Below, piece by piece: positions 1-20,929 of a DNA stretch of 22,538 nt. The translations under genes and the position numbers were made by a program. The stretch comes from Polyangiaceae bacterium (GTDB lineage: Bacteria; Myxococcota_A; Polyangia; Polyangiales; Polyangiaceae), in contig JBGAKG010000027.1 of assembly GCA_044224495.1 (NCBI GenBank), positions 6,983 through 29,520 of the forward strand, read 5' to 3'. The number at the start of each line of letters is the position of its first letter. Positions within the stretch are counted from its first letter, which is position 1. The notes beneath the pieces are model-generated. The model had not been told where the DNA came from and ran no database searches. It was given only the letters and a program-made list of their open reading frames with translations.

Positions 1-120
1 GGGCGAGTACGCTGGCACGATGAGGATGCCGAGCGAGCCCCACCCCTGCAGGTGGCTAGGCCAGACGGCGGCGAGTCGCTTCGCTCGAGCAGCCCTGCAC
101 TCGAGCACGAGCACGGGCCA

Positions 121-210
121 CGGATACGGTTACGGTTACGGACACGGATCCGGACGCGGATGCGGATGCGGATGCGGACACGGACACGGATGCGGATACG
201 GAGGCGGACA
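121..210. repeat. Hexanucleotide microsatellite: 15 tandem CGGNNN units (CGGATA, CGGTTA, CGGACA, CGGATG and similar), with a further degenerate copy at 217-222
   Basis: Direct reading: 15 consecutive CGG-W-N-N hexamers from 121 to 210. It lies just 3' of the stop of the minus-strand DUF218 gene. Read in any frame it would encode a dipeptide repeat (Gly-X, Arg-X, Asp-X, Ser-X). Confidence 0.9.
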
Positions 211-213
211 CCC

Positions 214-936
214 TCACGGATCCTTCGGATCCCCGCCCCTCCGAAACACCTCACCACTCGGCCGAAACTCTACCGTTCCGCCCGGCAACGAAACGACGTC
301 CCCCACCCGGTACCCAAAATCCGCAATGCACCGCTCCTCGAACCCCGAGATCCGCGGGTTCGCGAAATAGAACGCCTGATCACGCGACGTGACGATCAGC
401 GCGCGCCCCATCCCGTACCGGAGCATGAACCGCCCCACGTCGCGGAGGTTCGTGTGCGAGTGCCGCGCGCACGGCTCGACCACGATCGCACTCTCCGGAA
501 TCCCGTGGTCGAGGAGGTACCGCCTCATCAGCACGGCCTCCACGTACGGCGTCCCCTCCGGGTGCACGTTCGCCCCCGACACGAGGATGACGGGCGCCGC
601 TCCGCCGCGGAAGAACGCCATCGCGGAGTCGAGCCGCGCTGCCGCGTTGGGGTGCACCTCCGGCGTCGGTGCCGTCGCATCGAGCGGCGTGAACCCCGGC
701 ACCACGATCGCGTCGAACTGGCCCGGCCCCACGGCGACCTTGCGCCCCGCGAGCGCCGCGATCGCGGCGGAGTTCTCCCGCGCCACGTCGACGCCGTTCC
801 CACTGCAGAGCGACCACTCGCCCACCTCGGGGTGGGGCACCAGCGCGGCGACCTCGCCGCCTCCCCCTCGCGTGGCGTGACCATGCCCACCGCAGGCGGC
901 GAGACCGAGCCCCAGAACGGCAACGAAACTTCGCAT
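214..936 (-). CDS. DUF218 (YdcF/SanA-like) domain lipoprotein
   Basis: The long ORF 214..1287 was trimmed to the ATG at 934-936 (cat on the + strand), which gives an N-terminus MRSFVAVLGLGLAACGG with a lipobox. The C-terminal region (VILVSGANVHPEGTPYVEAVLMRRYLLDHGIPESAIVVEPCARHSHTNLRDVGRF) matches the DUF218 architecture. The upstream extension is R/S-rich and probably spurious. Confidence 0.7.
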   Translation of the reverse strand: MRSFVAVLGLGLAACGGHGHATRGGGGEVAALVPHPEVGEWSLCSGNGVDVARENSAAIAALAGRKVAVGPGQFDAIVVPGFTPLDATAPTPEVHPNAAARLDSAMAFFRGGAAPVILVSGANVHPEGTPYVEAVLMRRYLLDHGIPESAIVVEPCARHSHTNLRDVGRFMLRYGMGRALIVTSRDQAFYFANPRISGFEERCIADFGYRVGDVVSLPGGTVEFRPSGEVFRRGGDPKDP

Positions 937-964: not shown

Positions 965-2653
965 ATGACCGACGGCGATGACGCGACCGCGCTCCACCTC
1001 CGGAGACGAAGCGAGCCCCCGCCCGACGGTACGAGCCAAGCTCCGACTCGTCCGACGCCGACGCCCGTGCTCGGGATCGAGAACGTCCAGGCCATGGTCG
1101 AGGAGTTCCGCAAGCCTCCCGCCGAGCGCCAGGTCGTCGAGCGCCCGCTCGCCGCGGGCGGCATGGGCACCGTCGAGATCGTGATCGACCGCGCCCTCGG
1201 CCGGCGCATGGCCAAGAAGAGCATCCACGGCATCCTCTCCAGCGATCCGCGGATGCTGCGGATGTTCCTGCGCGAAGCCAGGACCACCGGGCTGCTCGAT
1301 CACCCGAACGTCGTCCCCGTCTACGACGTGGGCGAGCGCGACGGGCACTTGTATTTTACAATGAAGCTCGTCGAGGGGCGGACCCTCAAGGATCAGATCC
1401 GCGACCACGGCGGCGGCGGGAAGCCCGCGGACTACGGTCCGCTCGAGGCGAACGCCCTCTTCAACATGCTCGACGTCGTGGTGAAGATCTGCGACGCGCT
1501 CGCCTTCGCCCACGCGCGCCAGGTGATCCACTGCGACATCAAGCCGGCCAACGTGATGGTCGGAGACTTCGGCGAGGTCTACTTGATGGACTGGGGCATC
1601 GCGCGCCTCCAAGGCAGCGGCGGCCCCGCCGATCGCTCGTCCCAGCCCGACATCGATCCCAACGCCGACGAGCCCGCGCCTCCGAGCGGCGAGACGGGCG
1701 ATGCCGTCCTCGGCACCGCGAACTACATGTCGCCCGAGCAGGCCGAGGGCAGCCGCTTCCTCCTCGATCCGCGCAGCGACATCTTCAGCGTCGGCGCGAT
1801 GATCTACGAGATCCTCACCGGCCGTCCGCCGTACCGCGGCGAGTCGCACGGCGAGACGATCGAGCTCGCGCGCACCGCCACCTTCACGCCGCCGAGCGCG
1901 GTCGTCGGCGGCGCGCGGGTCCCGCCCGAGCTCGAGCGCATCGTGCTCAAGGCGATGGCGCGTCACCGCAGCGACCGCTACCCCGACATCGCCGCGCTCA
2001 AGGCCGACCTGCTGCGCTTCATGCGCGGAGGCGCCGAGTTCCCGCAGACGACGTTCAAGCGCGGCGCCGTCATCATGCGCGAGGGCGAGCAGGGGAAGTC
2101 CGCGTACATCATCGTCTCGGGCCGGGCCGAGGTGCGGAAGCAGATGGGCGGGCAGCTCCAGGTCCTCAAGACCCTGGGCGCGGGCGAGGTCTTCGGCGAG
2201 ATGGCGGTCCTCACCGAGGGACCCCGCACGGCGACCGTCGTCGCGATCGAGGACACGACCGTGCTCGTCGTCACCGACGAGGTGCTCCAACAGGAGCTCG
2301 TCCTCATGAAGCCGTGGCTCGCGCGGCTGGTCCAGGCGCTCGCCGAGCGCCTCCGCGATCTCTACACGACGAAGCGCGTCACCCTGACCGGCGGTCCGAC
2401 CGCTCCGCGTGTCGCGCTCCAGGTGGCGATGCACCTGATGCTCTTCGGCTCGCACGAGCCGAACGGCGCCCGCTCGCTCCGGTGGAGCACGCTCTCGAAG
2501 GAGATCGAGGCGCAGATGGGCGCGCCTCCCCACACGATCCACATGGTCGCGGCGCGCTATCGCGGTGTCACGCTCGACCTCGACGCCGACGTGATCACGG
2601 TCGCCGATCCGGCGGCGCTCGCGCAGATGGTCCGCGCCGATCTCGGCGGCTGA
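965..2653 (+). CDS. Hanks-type Ser/Thr protein kinase fused to a C-terminal cyclic-nucleotide-binding (cNMP) domain
   Basis: Kinase motifs: a Gly loop GGMGTV plus Lys in AKK, a catalytic loop HCDIKPANV, a DWG (DFG-like) motif and SPE. The cNMP domain has the phosphate-binding cassette FGEMAVLTEGPRTATVVA. The start is uncertain: GC3 is mixed between 965 and about 1060, and the GTG at 1067 or ATG at 1094 are in-frame alternatives. Confidence 0.85.
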   Translation: MTDGDDATALHLRRRSEPPPDGTSQAPTRPTPTPVLGIENVQAMVEEFRKPPAERQVVERPLAAGGMGTVEIVIDRALGRRMAKKSIHGILSSDPRMLRMFLREARTTGLLDHPNVVPVYDVGERDGHLYFTMKLVEGRTLKDQIRDHGGGGKPADYGPLEANALFNMLDVVVKICDALAFAHARQVIHCDIKPANVMVGDFGEVYLMDWGIARLQGSGGPADRSSQPDIDPNADEPAPPSGETGDAVLGTANYMSPEQAEGSRFLLDPRSDIFSVGAMIYEILTGRPPYRGESHGETIELARTATFTPPSAVVGGARVPPELERIVLKAMARHRSDRYPDIAALKADLLRFMRGGAEFPQTTFKRGAVIMREGEQGKSAYIIVSGRAEVRKQMGGQLQVLKTLGAGEVFGEMAVLTEGPRTATVVAIEDTTVLVVTDEVLQQELVLMKPWLARLVQALAERLRDLYTTKRVTLTGGPTAPRVALQVAMHLMLFGSHEPNGARSLRWSTLSKEIEAQMGAPPHTIHMVAARYRGVTLDLDADVITVADPAALAQMVRADLGG

Positions 2654-3609
2654 TGTCGGATCCGGTCGGCATCCTCCTCCTCGGGAGCGTGCTCGGCAGC
2701 GTGTTCTCGGCCGTGATCTACGGGGTCCGCGCGTGGTCGCGCTCCGAAGAGCGTCGCATCGACGAGGTCTGGCGGCGCGCCGCCACGTCGCTGAAAGGGA
2801 AGTTCGAGGCGCGCTCCGACGGGCGGCAGCTGCGCGCCGCGATCAACGGGCTCGAGGTCGTCGTGGACGAGACGCTCTCCGGGCGCATCCGGAACATCCG
2901 CGTCCGCGTGAACGCCGCGCACACGATCGGGTTCGCGGCCGACGTGCACCGCGCCGATGCGCTCCACCGCGCGTTCGCGGACGCGCGCGTCACGGACGAC
3001 CCTGCGTTCGACGCCGACTTCGTCATCGAGACCAACCGCCCGGCGCTCGCGCGGATCTGGCTCGACGCGAGCTCGCGCTCGGCAATCCGCGCGGTGGGCT
3101 CGTGGAAGCTCCACCTCGACGGCGGCTCGCTCACGCTCGTCCAACCGGAGACCGGCGCGATGGAGGCGCCGGAGCTCGCGCGCGCGATCCGGAGCGCCGC
3201 CGTCGTCGCCCAACGCGTGACGCGGCTGGCGAACGACTGGAACGCGCTCGCACGGAAGCTCGGCGGCGTGGTGTCGCGCTCGTTCGCTTTCGAGCGGAGC
3301 GAGCTCGCCGCCATGACCGTCGCGCACGACGCCACCGAGGCGAAGCTCGCGGTCGCGCACGATCTCTCCGCCGAGGTCCCCGTCGTCACCACCTTCGTGG
3401 ATGCGGTCGCGGCGGTGAAGCACGACGCGGCGACCCAGGCGACGTTCACCCAGCGCGCGGTCGAGCTCGGCGCGCAAACGTTGCGCTTCGCCGATGGGCG
3501 CGTCCGCCTCGAGCTCGAGGGCGTCGTCACCGACGGAACCGTGCTCCGGAAGCTGCTCGGCCTGGTGTTCGAGGCGGCGGCGCCACCTTCGGTCGGTCCG
3601 TACCGTTGA
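2653..3609 (+). CDS. Hypothetical single-pass membrane protein, translationally coupled to the upstream kinase
   Basis: The kinase stop and this gene's start form TGATG (stop 2651-2653, ATG 2653-2655). The N-terminal helix is VGILLLGSVLGSVFSAVIYGV, followed by an Ala-rich, probably helical soluble domain. The 2314 start in the ORF track overlaps kinase coding sequence and was rejected. Confidence 0.65.
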   Translation: MSDPVGILLLGSVLGSVFSAVIYGVRAWSRSEERRIDEVWRRAATSLKGKFEARSDGRQLRAAINGLEVVVDETLSGRIRNIRVRVNAAHTIGFAADVHRADALHRAFADARVTDDPAFDADFVIETNRPALARIWLDASSRSAIRAVGSWKLHLDGGSLTLVQPETGAMEAPELARAIRSAAVVAQRVTRLANDWNALARKLGGVVSRSFAFERSELAAMTVAHDATEAKLAVAHDLSAEVPVVTTFVDAVAAVKHDAATQATFTQRAVELGAQTLRFADGRVRLELEGVVTDGTVLRKLLGLVFEAAAPPSVGPYR

Positions 3610-3642
3610 CAGGGAGGCCCCGGGGTCGCAGAAGCGTGGGGC

Positions 3643-5952
3643 GTGCAGAAGACGATCACCCTCCCCGTCTCGGGCATGACCTGCGCGGCCTGTCAGGCCA
3701 ACGTGCAGCGCGCGCTCGTGAAGGCGCCCGGCGTCTCGGGCGCGGCGGTGAACCTCGCCACGCACTCGGCGCGGATCGAGTTCGACGACGCGGCGATCGC
3801 GCCGGAGGCGCTCGTCGAGCGGATCCGCGACGCCGGCTACGACGCCGAGCTCCCGCCCCCCGACGAGTCCGAGGCCGAAGCGGAAGAACGCGCCGACGCG
3901 CGCGACGCCGCCGAAGCACGGGAGGCACGCGCCACGCTCGTCAAGGCGCTCGTCTCGCTCGCGTTCGGCGCGATCGCGATGGTGATCTCGATGCCGCTCA
4001 TGACCGGGCACGAGCACGCAGCGCACGCGAGCGGCGATCCGTTCATGCGCGCGGCGGCCGGGGTGCTCGATCCGCCGCTCCGCGCCGCGTTGCCGTGGCT
4101 CTACGGCGCCCCGCGGAGCGCGCTCTGGTTGTCCCTCTTTGGGATGACCGTGATCACCATGGCGTGGGCCGGGCGCGAGATCTTCGTGCGCGGAGTGAAG
4201 AGCGCGCTCCACCGCACGCCCGACATGAACAGCCTCGTCGCGCTCGGGACCACCGCCGCGTTCGGCTACTCGGTCGCGGCGATGCTCTTCCCCGACGCGT
4301 TCCTGCGCGGGGGCGCCGCGCCCGATGCGTACTACGAGTCGGTCGTCTTCGTGATCGCGCTCGTGCTCCTGGGGCGCGCGCTCGAGGCGCGTGCTCGGCG
4401 CGCCGCGGCCCGGGCGCTCCACGCGCTGGCCGCGCTCCGGCCCGACGTGGCGCGAGTTCGGCGGGGCGACGCCATCGTCGAGGTCCCGTCGCGCGAGCTT
4501 CGCCCCGGCGACGAGCTGCAAGTGCGCCCCGGCGAGCGCTTCGCGGCGGACGGCACCGTCGCGGACGGCGCGGGCGACGTCGACGAGGCGTGGCTGACCG
4601 GGGAGTCGATGCCGGTGGCCAAGGCGACCGGCGACGCCGTGTTCGCCGGCACCGTGAACGGCTCGGCGGCGCTGCAGGTGCTGGTGACTCGGGCGCCGAG
4701 CGCGAGCCGCCTCGCGGGCGTGCTGCGGCTCCTCGGCGACGCGCAGGGCCGCCGCGCGCCGATCCAAGCGCTCGCCGATCGGGTGAGCCTGATCTTCGTG
4801 CCCACCGTCCTCGGTCTGGCGATCCTGGACTTCGTGGTCTGGCTCGCCGCGACGGGCTCGGTCGTCCGCGCGGCCGCCGCCGCCGTGAGCGTGCTCGTCA
4901 TCGCGTGCCCGTGTGCGATGGGCCTCGCGGTCCCGACCGCAGTGCTCGTGGCGACCGGCGGCGCGGCGCAGGTCGGGATCCTCCTCCGCGGCGGCGAGGC
5001 GATCGAGCGCTTGGCCGCGGCCGACGTCGTCGTCCTGGACAAGACCGGCACCGTGACGCTCGGTCGTCCCAAAGTGGTACAGTTCGAGCTGGTCCCGGGA
5101 GCCACGGTCGACCCGAGCGTGCTCCTGGCCGAGGCGGCCGCGATCGAGGCGGCCTCCGAGCACCCACTCGCGCGCGCCGTCGTCGCGCACGCCGAAGCCG
5201 AAGGCGTCACCGTCGTCCCCGCCAAGGGCGTTCGGGCGCTCCCGGGGCTCGGCGTCGAGCGTACGGTCGACGGCGTCGTGACGCGGATCGGCGCGCGCGC
5301 GCTGCTGGCCAGCGGAGCCGAGCTCCCGTGGCCGGCCACCGCCGGCGAGGTGCTCGTCGTCCGCGACGGCGCCGCGCTCGCGCGGTTCGTGCTCCAGGAC
5401 GAGGTGCGCCCCACGTCGGCCGACGCGGTGAAGGAGCTCGTCGCGCTCGGGCTCGAGGTCCACCTCGTGAGCGGCGACGCGGAGAGCGCGGTCGCGGCCG
5501 CGGCGCGCGCGGTCGGAATCGAGCGCTACCGCGCGAGCACGTCGCCCGAGGGCAAGCTCGCCGAGGTCGAGCGGCTCGGCGCGGCCGGCAAGCGCGTGGC
5601 GATGGTGGGGGACGGCATCAACGACGCCCCCGCGCTCGCCCGCGCGCACGTCGGGATCGCGATCGGCGGCGGGACCGACGTCGCGATGGAGGCCGCCGAC
5701 GCGACCCTCCTCGGCGGCGATCTCCGCGCGCTCCCCCGCGCCATCCGCTTGTCGCGACGGGCGATGCGGATCATGCGCGAGAACCTCGTCTGGGCCTTCG
5801 CCTACAACGTGCTCGGCATCCCGATCGCCGCGGGAGCGCTCTATCCTGCGTTCGGGATCCTGCTGAGCCCGATCCTCGCGAGCGCGGCGATGGCGGCGAG
5901 CTCGGTGAGCGTCGTCGGAAACAGCCTGCGCCTGAAGCAGAAGCCGAAGTAG
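3643..5952 (+). CDS. copA: Copper(I)-translocating P1B-type ATPase (CopA-like)
   Basis: N-terminal HMA domain with GMTCAAC, the CPC motif in the TM6 region, the DKTGT phosphorylation site, [10 protein letters not shown], and the YN (AFAYNVLG) and MAASS motifs typical of P1B-1 Cu+ pumps. It starts at a GTG. Confidence 0.9.
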
Positions 5953-5961
5953 ACTGAACCC

Positions 5962-6900
5962 GTGCGCCTACGCTCCACATTGTTTGGTCTCGCCGCCGCA
6001 TCCAGCGGTGCGCTCGCGCTCGTCCACTGCAGCGATCCCGCGCCCCTCGGGCCGGATGGCGGCGCCGATGCGACGGTCGACGTCGCGCTCGACGCGATCG
6101 GTCCGGGCGACGGTGGGGCCGAGGCCACGATCGAGGCCGGGCCCCCGTGCGACGACAAGACCCCGTGCGAAGCCGGCACCTGCTGCAGCGGCGCCTGCAC
6201 CGATCTCGCGAAGGATCCACGCAACTGCGGCGCGTGCGGCGCCGCCTGCACCAGCGCGCAGTTCTGCAACGGGAAGGCGTGCATCGCAGCGCAGCTCAAG
6301 AACCTCTGCGAGAACCCAAAGCTCGCCGTGATCCTCGACGGCGTCGTCCCCGACGAGACCGCCGCCGCCCCGATCGGAGCGGCGGTCGACGGCGGCTGTA
6401 CCCCGTCGGTCCAGGTGCGCAACGTGCTGCAGAACGCGCCCGGCGTCATCGACGACGCGGGCCGCCCGCTCCTCGGCGTCGGGGACACCTACCTCGCGAC
6501 GGGCGGCGCGTTCGGGCAGAAGGCGATCGGCTGGGTCGAGTCGAACAAGGTCGGCCCCGTCTACACGCTCGGCGACCAGAACAGCTTCTCGTTCGTGCGC
6601 AAGTCGGACAACGGCTTGCTCGCGAAGGTGCAGAACGCCGACCTGACCGCGAAGCACGATTGGTTCGTCGTCTACCTCGCGCCCGAGCCGCTCGCGGGCA
6701 CGCTCGTGTTCGCGGTCTACGGGATCATGACCGCCGGGACGAACGCCGCGTCGTGGTTCGTCGCGAACCAAGTGCTGCCGAACCGGTCCACGTTCGACAA
6801 GCAGTACTACGTCTACGAGTGGATCGACGCCGACGACGCGGGCACGCCGAACGCACCCGACGCGAACGACACGTTCAAGGTGCTCGCGTCGGGTCCCTGA
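5962..6900 (+). CDS. Secreted Cys-rich protein with a Stig1-like cysteine pattern and a C-terminal domain of unknown function
   Basis: Signal peptide MRLRSTLFGLAAASSGALALVHC. Ten cysteines sit in PPCDDKTPCEAGTCCSGACTDLAKDPRNCGACGAACTSAQFCNGKAC. GC3 is high. It begins 10 nt after the copA stop. Confidence 0.7.
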   Translation: MRLRSTLFGLAAASSGALALVHCSDPAPLGPDGGADATVDVALDAIGPGDGGAEATIEAGPPCDDKTPCEAGTCCSGACTDLAKDPRNCGACGAACTSAQFCNGKACIAAQLKNLCENPKLAVILDGVVPDETAAAPIGAAVDGGCTPSVQVRNVLQNAPGVIDDAGRPLLGVGDTYLATGGAFGQKAIGWVESNKVGPVYTLGDQNSFSFVRKSDNGLLAKVQNADLTAKHDWFVVYLAPEPLAGTLVFAVYGIMTAGTNAASWFVANQVLPNRSTFDKQYYVYEWIDADDAGTPNAPDANDTFKVLASGP

Positions 6901-17712: not shown

Positions 17713-18630
17713 GTGGTGCCGGACGACGACGACGATCTGGAGAAGACCAACGTCACCCACAGCGGTGAGTTGGTCCGTGAGCTCCTCGCGAAATCGCAGC
17801 GAGATCGCGCGTATCTGATCGTCCTTCAGGGCTCCAACGTCGGCGAGATGTACCGCCTCGACGGGGGCGAGAGCGTCATCGGCCGCGCGTCCACCGCCCA
17901 CATCAAGCTCGGGGACGACGGCGTCTCCCGCAAGCACGCCCGCGTCGTCGTCGACGGCGCGGCGGTTCGGATCGAAGACCTCGGCAGCTCGAACGGCACG
18001 CTCGTCAACGGCGCCAAGGTCGACATGCAGCAGCTGCGGGACGGCGACAAAATCCAGATCGGCTCGACCACCGTCCTCAAGTTCACGTACCACGACAAGC
18101 TCGAGGAGAGCTTCCAGCGCCAGATGTACGACGCGGCGCTGCGCGACGGCCTCACCAAGGCCTACAACAAGAAGCACTTCACGCACCGGCTCGAGACCGA
18201 GTTCGCGTACGCGAAGCGCCACGCGAGCGCGCTCTCGCTCCTCATGTTCGACGTCGATCACTTCAAGCGGATCAACGACACGTTCGGCCACCTCGCCGGC
18301 GACTACGTCCTCTCGCGCCTCGCGCAGGTCGCGCAGGGCACGCTCCGCACCGAAGACCTCTTCGCCCGCTACGGCGGCGAAGAGTTCGCGATCCTCTGCC
18401 GCGGCGTTCCGCTCGCGAGCGCCGCCATCCTCGGCGAGCGCATCCGCGGGCTCGTTCAGACCACCAACTTCGTCTTCGAGACGCGCGAGATCCCGGTCAC
18501 CGTCAGCGTCGGCGTGGCCGCGATGCCGGAGCTCAGCATCGAGCAGCCCCTCGAGCTCGTGGGCTGCGCGGACGAAGCGCTCTACGAAGCCAAGCGCACC
18601 GGCCGCAACCGCGTGTGCCTGAAGCGCTGA
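17713..18630 (+). CDS. FHA domain - GGDEF diguanylate cyclase (GGEEF active site, RxxD I-site)
   Basis: FHA: SRKHARVVVDGAAVRIEDLGSSNGTLVNG. GGDEF: DHFKRINDTFGH, RTEDLFARYGGEEF, ALYEAKRTGRN. The GTG start at 17713 lies immediately after an in-frame TGA, so the exact start is uncertain. Confidence 0.8.
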   Translation: MVPDDDDDLEKTNVTHSGELVRELLAKSQRDRAYLIVLQGSNVGEMYRLDGGESVIGRASTAHIKLGDDGVSRKHARVVVDGAAVRIEDLGSSNGTLVNGAKVDMQQLRDGDKIQIGSTTVLKFTYHDKLEESFQRQMYDAALRDGLTKAYNKKHFTHRLETEFAYAKRHASALSLLMFDVDHFKRINDTFGHLAGDYVLSRLAQVAQGTLRTEDLFARYGGEEFAILCRGVPLASAAILGERIRGLVQTTNFVFETREIPVTVSVGVAAMPELSIEQPLELVGCADEALYEAKRTGRNRVCLKR

Positions 18631-19879: not shown

Positions 19880-20929
19880 ATGACCTTCGGCTACGACGAC
19901 TTCGGTGCTGTCGCCCAGCGGCTGCACTTTCGGATCGATCCGCCCGAGAAGCACCTCCTCGCCGCCGAGCACTCCATCGACGGAGTGCTCGACGGGGTCC
20001 ACGTCTACGTCCGCCAGTGGCAGGGCCAATGGGTCCACGTGGAGTTCACCGCCTGGCTCACCCCGGCGCTCGATCTGCGCTTGCTCATCGAGCGCGAGAG
20101 CGTGGGGGCGAAGCTCGGTCACCTCGTCGGCCGGCACGACATCGAGATCGGCGATCCCGAGCTCGATCGCGCATGGAAGATCAAGGCGGACGAGCCCGAG
20201 CGCGCCAAGGCCCTCTTCACGCCCGCGGTCCGCGCCGCGATGCTCGGCTGGAAGAAGTCCGGCGTGCCCCTCCGCATCACCGACGAGACCGTCTCGTTCT
20301 GGGTCACGCCCGGCGCGTACTCGACGCTGTCGCAGCCCGTGCTCGAGCAAGACATCCGGGCCGCGGTCGGCCTGGTCACCGCGCTCGCCGCGGCGACACC
20401 GAACGTCCCGAGCTCGACGCTGTTCGCGGAGTACGTCGAAGCGTGGCGCGCCTACGCGACGGCGCGCGGGCTCGAGCTCACGGCTTCGCCGCTCCGGGTC
20501 AGCGGGCGCCTCGACGGCTCGCCGTTCACTGCGCGCGCGGTCGCGACGGACGAACGGCGGTGGGGCGTCGACGTGCACCTCGCGTTCGACGAGCCCCTCC
20601 CGTTCGCGCTCCGCGTGCGGCCGAAGCGGTTCTTCGATTTCATGGTGCTGAGCGGCGAGCCCCCGCACCTCGAGCTCGGGGATCCCGCGTTCGACGGCGA
20701 GCTCCGGACGAGCACGACCGAGCCGCCGAAGGCGAAGGCGTTCCTCGACGAAGGCGTGCGGCGCGCGCTCCTCGAGCTCCACGCGACCGCCGGTGACGTT
20801 CAGCTCGACGAGCGCGGCCTCGCCGTTCGCACGAAGACGATGACCGATCCCGAGACGTTCGGCCGCATCGCCGAGCGCGTCGCTCTCGTCGCGCGGAAGC
20901 TGCACGAGCGCGCGGGACCGTATCGCTGA
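19880..20929 (+). CDS. Hypothetical protein built from two tandem homologous halves
   Basis: GAGG SD 5 nt upstream. The halves align: IEIGDPELDRAWKIKADEPERAKALFTPAVRAAML with LELGDPAFDGELRTSTTEPPKAKAFLDEGVRRALL, and GVLDGVHVYVRQWQ..W with GRLDGSPFTARAVATDERRW. Confidence 0.65.
   Translation: MTFGYDDFGAVAQRLHFRIDPPEKHLLAAEHSIDGVLDGVHVYVRQWQGQWVHVEFTAWLTPALDLRLLIERESVGAKLGHLVGRHDIEIGDPELDRAWKIKADEPERAKALFTPAVRAAMLGWKKSGVPLRITDETVSFWVTPGAYSTLSQPVLEQDIRAAVGLVTALAAATPNVPSSTLFAEYVEAWRAYATARGLELTASPLRVSGRLDGSPFTARAVATDERRWGVDVHLAFDEPLPFALRVRPKRFFDFMVLSGEPPHLELGDPAFDGELRTSTTEPPKAKAFLDEGVRRALLELHATAGDVQLDERGLAVRTKTMTDPETFGRIAERVALVARKLHERAGPYR

Follow-up and report, generated by a model that had tools for sequence, protein, structure and literature searches.

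A 22,538-nucleotide (nt) stretch of a contig from a soil myxobacterium, a Polyangiaceae bacterium (JBGAKG010000027.1, positions 6,983 to 29,520; ~70% GC), referred to here as the window, contains a gene for a soluble Ser/Thr protein kinase of the bacterial PknB type whose polypeptide continues, C-terminal to the kinase domain, into what alignments and models predict to be a complete CRP/FNR-type module with a cyclic-nucleotide-binding (cNMP) beta-roll, a C-helix and a winged helix. The kinase gene overlaps a second gene, encoding a membrane-anchored protein termed here the partner, and the pair is followed by copA, encoding a copper ATPase. The reading that we favour, and which we regard as reasonably probable, is that of a cyclic-nucleotide-gated soluble Hanks kinase to which one clade has added a membrane adaptor, possibly tied to copper export. 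The advance is incremental: automatic annotation already lists proteins of this build, for example under 'cyclic nucleotide-binding domain-containing protein' or 'CRP-like cAMP-binding protein/...', and the proposed mechanism contains nothing unprecedented.

Kinase and CRP-like domains

The kinase domain is matched by Pfam Pkinase (PF00069) at residues 60–304 (E = 1.1e-32; 114 bits, cut-off 31.7), and in Foldseek comparisons its best structural match is Mycobacterium tuberculosis PknB (33% identity, target TM-score 0.88), followed by PknA and Stk1; the 50 best structural matches include no chain of PKA or PKG, members of the AGC (protein kinase A, G and C) group. Residue conservation was scored in an alignment of 116 kinase homologues (49–94% identity), throughout which G65-G-M-G68, K85, E104, D191, K193, N196, D209 and P257-E258 are invariant; S256 of the S-P-E motif (256–258) is present in 115. 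The kinase looks catalytically active, as proposed in the first-pass annotation of this DNA, with the catalytic Lys and Asp (K85 and D191) among the invariant positions. Its catalytic loop is not of the RD (Arg-Asp) type, since HRD is replaced by an invariant H-C-D, and DFG is replaced by D-W-G. The RD and non-RD states distinguish subclasses and are not a requirement for membership of the Hanks kinases. The activation loop contains an insert of ~30 residues that is disordered in the AlphaFold2 model (predicted local distance difference test score, pLDDT, <50 for residues 218–246) and in which T244 is present in 113 of the 116 homologues; the model of the whole 562-residue protein has a pLDDT of 83.7 and a predicted template modelling score (pTM) of 0.65. 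Assignments to the MADS6, BREX PglW and lanthionine-synthetase kinase families were rejected, as the NCBIfam matches are far below the cut-offs and cover the generic kinase core only.

The C-terminal half begins with a match to Pfam cNMP_binding (PF00027) at residues 363–443 (E = 1.8e-22; 79.6 bits, above the gathering score), and a sequence search of solved structures returns the cyclic-nucleotide-binding domains of PKG and PKA as best matches (E = 4e-25 to 1e-16), together with CRP proteins. The phosphate-binding cassette, first described as intact, is indeed not disrupted: G411, E412, R421 and A423 are invariant in the 116 homologues, T422 is present in 112, and the glycines between beta2 and beta3 of the beta-roll are likewise invariant.

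The ~100 residues that follow the beta-roll had been suggested to be a degenerate CRP-like domain, and several comparisons agree with this. M. tuberculosis Crp can be aligned over the full length of the C-terminal half (query 28–221 with residues 29–222 of the 224-residue chain; E = 8e-16), as can GlxR, and the NCBIfam model for FtrB, a CRP/FNR-family regulator, matches residues 335–559 (E = 7e-6). With the tail alone (residues 440–562) a single-sequence search of solved structures gives nothing significant and searches of Pfam and NCBIfam give no match, and Pfam HTH_Crp is not found in the kinase protein; a tail-only profile built from 23 sequences and searched against the whole PDB, by contrast, matches CRP-family chains only (M. 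tuberculosis Crp 122–222, E = 1.4e-3; GlxR, E = 0.016). In the AlphaFold2 model the tail has the order helix, strand, helix, helix, beta-hairpin, helix (pLDDT 90–98), with a winged helix at residues 480–559. The cNMP domain and the tail are thus predicted to form a complete CRP/FNR-type module.

The one CRP/FNR hallmark that is missing is a polar or basic recognition helix of the R-E-x-x-x-R/K type that contacts DNA. The recognition helix reads A-P-P-H-T-I-H-M-V-A-A-R-Y and has a hydrophobic consensus across the family, in which the positions of S-R-E-T-V-N-K in M. tuberculosis Crp are occupied by A/L/V-P-P-H/L/I-A/T-I-F/H. It has about one basic residue, and the net charge of the winged helix averages −2.4 (range −5 to +1 in 116 members). 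A hydrophobic recognition helix within an acidic domain argues that the winged helix has probably lost DNA binding and would now have a regulatory or interaction role.

More than 100 full-length homologues are present among the database matches listed, with 49–94% identity and all with both Pkinase and cNMP_binding; their names place them in Polyangiaceae, Labilithrix and further assemblies of Myxococcota. One database protein (P0001) is identical to the window kinase, and in a 93%-identical locus the N-terminus is conserved from residue 1. The domains of the kinase gene are strong matches within a conserved gene family and not chance features. The claim that such fusions exist in Myxococcota holds, but the family is not confined to that phylum. 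A scan of contigs with the full-length kinase alignment and the pattern YMSPEQA[RE], which mostly returned generic kinases, yielded a single true family member, a 661-residue Planctomycetota protein (locus L003, 9818..11803) that combines Pkinase and cNMP_binding with a tail alignable to the CRP-like profile of the family. It has HRD in place of HCD and retains DWG. A Planctomycetota protein of the same build indicates that the kinase–CRP fusion is older and wider than Myxococcota and points to HCD as the derived state. An Acidobacteriota candidate (L057) was rejected, since its kinase is followed by a repeat region at the C-terminus and its architecture is a different one.

The first-pass annotation also described such fusions as functionally uncharacterised, and in the searchable literature we found no bacterial Hanks kinase that carries a cNMP sensor and has been studied biochemically. 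For myxobacteria, the only cNMP fusions noted there are those with PP2C (PMC2887360).

Partner protein and gene order

The kinase stop codon and the partner start codon share one nucleotide (ggcTGATGtcg, 2648..2658), and copA follows, an arrangement that is present just as first described. The description of the second gene as translationally coupled and encoding a membrane-anchored protein also stands, given this overlap and a hydrophobic segment at residues 5–25. A model of the partner has a helix at residues 4–46, and a hydrophobic N-terminal segment is present in 54 of the 64 aligned members of the partner family; by the positive-inside rule, the Arg-rich stretch after the anchor points to a cytoplasmic location of the soluble part.

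Searches of Pfam and NCBIfam with the partner give no match, DUF3137 being absent even at an E-value of 10, and a word-indexed protein search returns three homologues only. An exhaustive profile search, however, finds 206 cluster representatives at E ≤1e-3, and DUF3137 (PF11335) is matched by 24 of 64 partner homologues (best E = 1.6e-7). In its model the partner has both an N-terminal anchor and the alpha/beta fold of TtfA, with two domains of a TtfA- or type III chaperone-like fold, and it is a putative remote relative of DUF3137. The family is otherwise only ~30% identical, and yet 58 of the 64 members end in YR, mostly as GPYR. This tail is flexible in the partner model (pLDDT 68), and GPYR-COOH resembles docking motifs of the hydrophobic-Tyr-X type found at C-termini. 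A second member of the partner family is encoded in the window at 19880..20926 (+); it and the partner have the DPxFD...L(D/T)xxxR motif region in common (BLASTP E = 1e-4), and it matches DUF3137 with E = 2e-4 (below the gathering score), ends in ...AGPYR, and has no obvious N-terminal anchor. Neither this gene nor that of another family member, P0130, adjoins a kinase gene.

Gene order was scored by tblastn in 36 other kinase loci: protein look-ups supplied nine and a metagenome scan 26, the remaining one being L001, which is a second copy of the window sequence and adds nothing to the locus counts. The partner gene lies directly 3′ of the kinase gene in eight loci (the window, L002, L083, L089, L090, L091, L092 and L093), the kinases of the other seven being 69–93% identical to that of the window, and at all eight junctions the genes overlap or are separated by no more than ~11 nt. 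The partner changes faster than its neighbours, with 29–59% identity compared with 71–93% for the kinase and 61–80% for CopA. The position of the pair directly upstream of copA, noted at first from the window alone, recurs, and there are four such loci in all (the window, with a spacing of 33 nt, L090, L091 and L093; 30–33 nt). In a further locus (L096, 1..3435) a kinase gene (63% identity) is followed by copA after a gap of ~70 nt with no partner gene between them, and kinase–copA adjacency may predate the partner or survive its loss.

Other surroundings vary with distance from the window kinase. Loci with 63–69% kinase identity have a convergent methyltransferase gene downstream, and ~15 Labilithrix-like loci with ~50% identity (L087, L088, L099–L113) have T2SSE (PilB/PilT-like) ATPase genes downstream as a convergent pair, together with enolase, with a GMC oxidoreductase or MarR gene upstream. 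Within the 63–94% clade the upstream block consists of genes for a GAF-HisKA histidine kinase, a ~60-residue open reading frame (ORF) product, a DUF533/TerB-like protein and a short-chain dehydrogenase (L002, L083, L085, L094, L095 and L097; partly L084 and L091). In the closest members this block is followed by a DUF218 gene on the opposite strand, which is upstream of the kinase gene in L002, L083 and L091 as well as in the window, where the sequence begins past the block.

Proposed mechanism and alternatives

In the favoured reading, a cyclic nucleotide would occupy the intact phosphate-binding cassette, and its binding would shift the C-helix and the former DNA-binding domain, as in CRP. 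The shift would alter autoinhibitory contacts of the kinase and/or the geometry of a dimer, turning the kinase on or off. As a non-RD (HCD) enzyme, it is expected to be controlled allosterically, with no reliance on phosphorylation of the activation loop. In most genomes the kinase gene has no partner gene, one subclade having gained the translationally coupled one. The partner could be a membrane adaptor or scaffold (or a substrate), drawing the kinase to the inner membrane, where the target of the two proteins may be the Cu+-ATPase CopA encoded just downstream.

Several observations weigh against parts of this reading. The partner gene is missing from L084, whose kinase is 69% identical, such that it is present in eight of the nine loci at ≥69% identity, and it is present in none of the ~25 loci with kinases of ≤64% identity; the kinase therefore does not need the partner. 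The two-component module proposed in the first-pass annotation survives in part: the coupling is retained among close relatives, but the two-gene module was added within one clade and does not characterise the family as a whole, the partner-bearing subclade being probably Polyangiaceae. The copA gene is 7 kb away in L002 and is replaced by a toxin–antitoxin-like pair in L089. Where copA does follow the partner gene it may have its own promoter and independent regulation. A TTGACA hexamer lies over the partner stop codon, and CGTTGACA is kept in all four partner–copA junctions (window 3604..3645) despite containing a rare CGT Arg codon. In two of these loci a perfect palindrome, ATACCCCC-C-GGGGGTAT, is located just 5′ of copA (L091, 5063..5125; L093, 1409..1471), of which the window retains only CCCCGGGG; we take the palindrome to be similar to CsoR-type copper-repressor operators. 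The promoter scan found no complete sigma-70 consensus, and the single terminator-like site returned by the terminator scan is inside the partner ORF and at chance level. The sequence does not distinguish cyclic AMP (cAMP) from cyclic GMP (cGMP) as the ligand, the R-T-A signature being found in binders of both, and the arrangement of the domains in the AlphaFold2 model is only moderately confident (pTM 0.65). Lastly, the whole neighbourhood (histidine kinase, DUF533 and DUF218 genes) is syntenic within the subclade, and adjacency may therefore reflect shared ancestry.

This last point leads to the alternative that survives best, although we consider it unlikely: the kinase–partner–copA order would be inherited and functionally meaningless, and the partner gene one of many DUF3137-like paralogues that happened to land there. 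It accounts for the restriction of the partner to the subclade with ≥69% kinase identity, in which upstream genes are syntenic too, for a wider partner family that is not linked to kinases (the 19880..20926 gene is far from any), and for the displacement of copA in L002 and L089 and the order of L096. It accounts less readily for junctions that remain tight at all eight loci while partner identity drops to 29% and kinase identity stays at ≥71%, and for the retention of the partner with a conserved fold and C-terminus.

A second alternative concerns the ligand. The beta-roll might no longer sense cAMP or cGMP and bind another ligand or none (compare FNR, CooA, NtcA and CprK), with the kinase regulated otherwise or constitutive. 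The CRP/FNR superfamily contains many proteins that do not bind cyclic nucleotides, HCD would fit a kinase that needs no activation, and no cyclase gene was noticed in the window, in which most ORFs past 8 kb were scanned against Pfam in part only. We nevertheless consider loss of cyclic-nucleotide sensing quite unlikely, as the residues for the ribose-phosphate (G411, E412, R421 and A423) and the beta2–beta3 glycines do not vary across the 116 homologues and the best sequence matches are genuine cGMP- and cAMP-binding domains of PKG and PKA. The third alternative, a hybrid of kinase and transcription factor in which a dimeric CRP module has kept its DNA binding and is modulated by the kinase domain, or takes that domain to promoters, would suit the full CRP topology of the tail, its alignment to the DNA-binding domain of M. 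tuberculosis Crp and the conservation of the helix-turn-helix scaffold residues E515, Q517, G519 and Y532, but is very unlikely with S-R-E-T-V-N-K replaced by [A/L/V]-P-P-[H/L/I]-[A/T]-I-[F/H], about one basic residue in the recognition helix, and a winged helix that is acidic on average across the family.

The favoured reading can be extended to a bacterial cyclic-nucleotide-dependent kinase that evolved apart from PKA and PKG by taking in a whole CRP transcription factor, is gated by the former DNA-binding winged helix and, in one Polyangiaceae subclade, is tethered by a TtfA-like protein, docked through GPYR, and tunes CopA by phosphorylation; we give this extension a small chance of being right as a whole. 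Textbooks present protein kinases that depend on cyclic nucleotides as an invention of eukaryotes, and if the extension were true it would link cAMP or cGMP signalling to copper efflux. The kinase family provides a clean, soluble, single-polypeptide system for the rewiring of the CRP switch from DNA binding to kinase control, with the invariant HCD, DWG and K-P-W at the start of the C-helix as targets for mutagenesis, and the clade-specific adaptor and its adjacency to copA offer a testable physiological output.

Window features and comparison with known systems

The features in and around the kinase gene are listed in Table 1. GC content at third codon positions (GC3) is 0.93 for the partner gene and 0.94 for copA, similar to that of the kinase gene; all three are coding, and these values are the coding signature of the host genome. 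The start of the DUF218 gene is uncertain, as the gene caller for L001 places it at window position 840. A search of the window against Rfam found no RNA family.

Table 1. Window coordinates of the kinase gene, its domains and motifs, and the adjacent genes
Feature	Position	Strand	Basis or remark
DUF218 lipoprotein-like gene, divergent, 5′ of the kinase gene	214..930	-	Pfam DUF218; syntenic neighbour
Kinase coding sequence (soluble Ser/Thr kinase with CRP-like module)	965..2653	+	562 residues; ATG start; Pfam Pkinase and cNMP_binding; GC3 0.93
Hanks-type (PknB-like) kinase domain, residues ~56–345	1130..1999	+	Pfam, Foldseek, invariant residues
Catalytic loop H189-C190-D191, non-RD variant of HRD	1529..1537	+	Each residue in 116/116
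D209-W210-G211, DWG variant of DFG	1589..1597	+	116/116; aligns at DFG site after HCDIKPANVMV
Activation-loop insert, residues ~215–246	1607..1702	+	Long, poorly conserved; ends at near-invariant T244
Cyclic-nucleotide-binding beta-roll, residues ~355–445	2027..2299	+	Pfam; sequence matches to solved PKG, PKA and CRP structures
Phosphate-binding cassette F410-G-E-M-A-V-L-T-E-G-P-R-T-A-T-V425	2192..2239	+	Key residues conserved
Predicted CRP C-helix equivalent, starting with invariant K449-P450-W451	2309..2374	+	Model helix 450–470; matched to residues 122 onward of M. tuberculosis Crp
Predicted CRP-type winged-helix domain with degenerate recognition helix, residues ~478–560	2396..2644	+	Model, tail profile, FtrB match
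Partner coding sequence (membrane-anchored, putative remote DUF3137 relative with TtfA-like fold)	2653..3609	+	318 residues
N-terminal transmembrane anchor, partner residues 5–25	2665..2727	+	Kyte-Doolittle 2.14; Arg-rich stretch after
C-terminal end of partner, G-P-Y-R	3595..3606	+	Invariant in four closest homologues
TTGACA hexamer over the partner stop codon, 5′ of copA	3606..3611	+	Conserved in four partner–copA loci
copA, P1B-type copper ATPase	3643..5952	+	Pfam HMA, E1-E2_ATPase and Hydrolase; CxxC and CPC motifs in translation

Three further features of the window were observed. A hexanucleotide tandem repeat (ACGGAT, ~14 copies, 83% matches; 120..221) extends from just within the DUF218 gene, whose stop is at 214, into the spacer beyond its 3′ end, and reads as Gly/Tyr/His in one frame and as Arg/Ile/Met in another. 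Directly 3′ of copA is a gene for a secreted Cys-rich protein with a lipoprotein-like signal (5962..6900, +) and a weak match to Stig1 (E = 1.4e-4, below the cut-off). An FHA-GGDEF protein, which joins a phospho-threonine reader to a diguanylate cyclase, is encoded at 17770..18630 (+; FHA E = 4e-19, GGDEF E = 1e-45) and represents a plausible downstream target class for the Ser/Thr kinases of the genome.

Compared with PknB-type kinases (M. tuberculosis PknB and PknA, and Staphylococcus aureus Stk1), which are its best structural matches, the window kinase has the same fold and catalytic residues, a GT..Y[ML]SPEQ P+1 loop and a conserved Thr in the activation loop. It differs in having no transmembrane segment and no PASTA domain, in having HCD for HRD and DWG for DFG, and in a C-terminal sensor that is cytoplasmic and CRP-like. 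For the sensor half, the closest solved CRP/FNR relatives are M. tuberculosis Crp (Rv3676) and Corynebacterium glutamicum GlxR, with which the beta-roll, C-helix and winged helix align throughout. In the window, however, this module is fused behind a kinase, its DNA-contact residues are now Pro or hydrophobic and the domain is acidic, and the kinase–CRP protein is probably not a transcription factor. The partner resembles TtfA, the mycobacterial MmpL3 accessory factor (PDB 6t84), in its anchor and alpha/beta fold, but is 10% identical to it, has two tandem domains and ends in the conserved GPYR.

PKG and PKA likewise combine a kinase with cyclic-nucleotide-binding domains, those of PKG being the best matches to the window beta-roll (E = 4e-25) with the R-T-A signature in common, and the first-pass annotation had called the kinase 'PKG-like'. 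That name does not hold beyond analogy: the kinase domain is non-AGC and closest to PknB, and the domain order is reversed, with one cNMP domain C-terminal to the kinase as opposed to two to four. In PKG tandem cNMP domains are N-terminal to the catalytic domain and in PKA they are on a separate subunit; the window protein has neither arrangement, and adds the CRP-type C-helix and winged helix. No pseudosubstrate segment turned up in the kinase protein, though no search was aimed at one. The resemblance of the window kinase to PKG and PKA is convergent.

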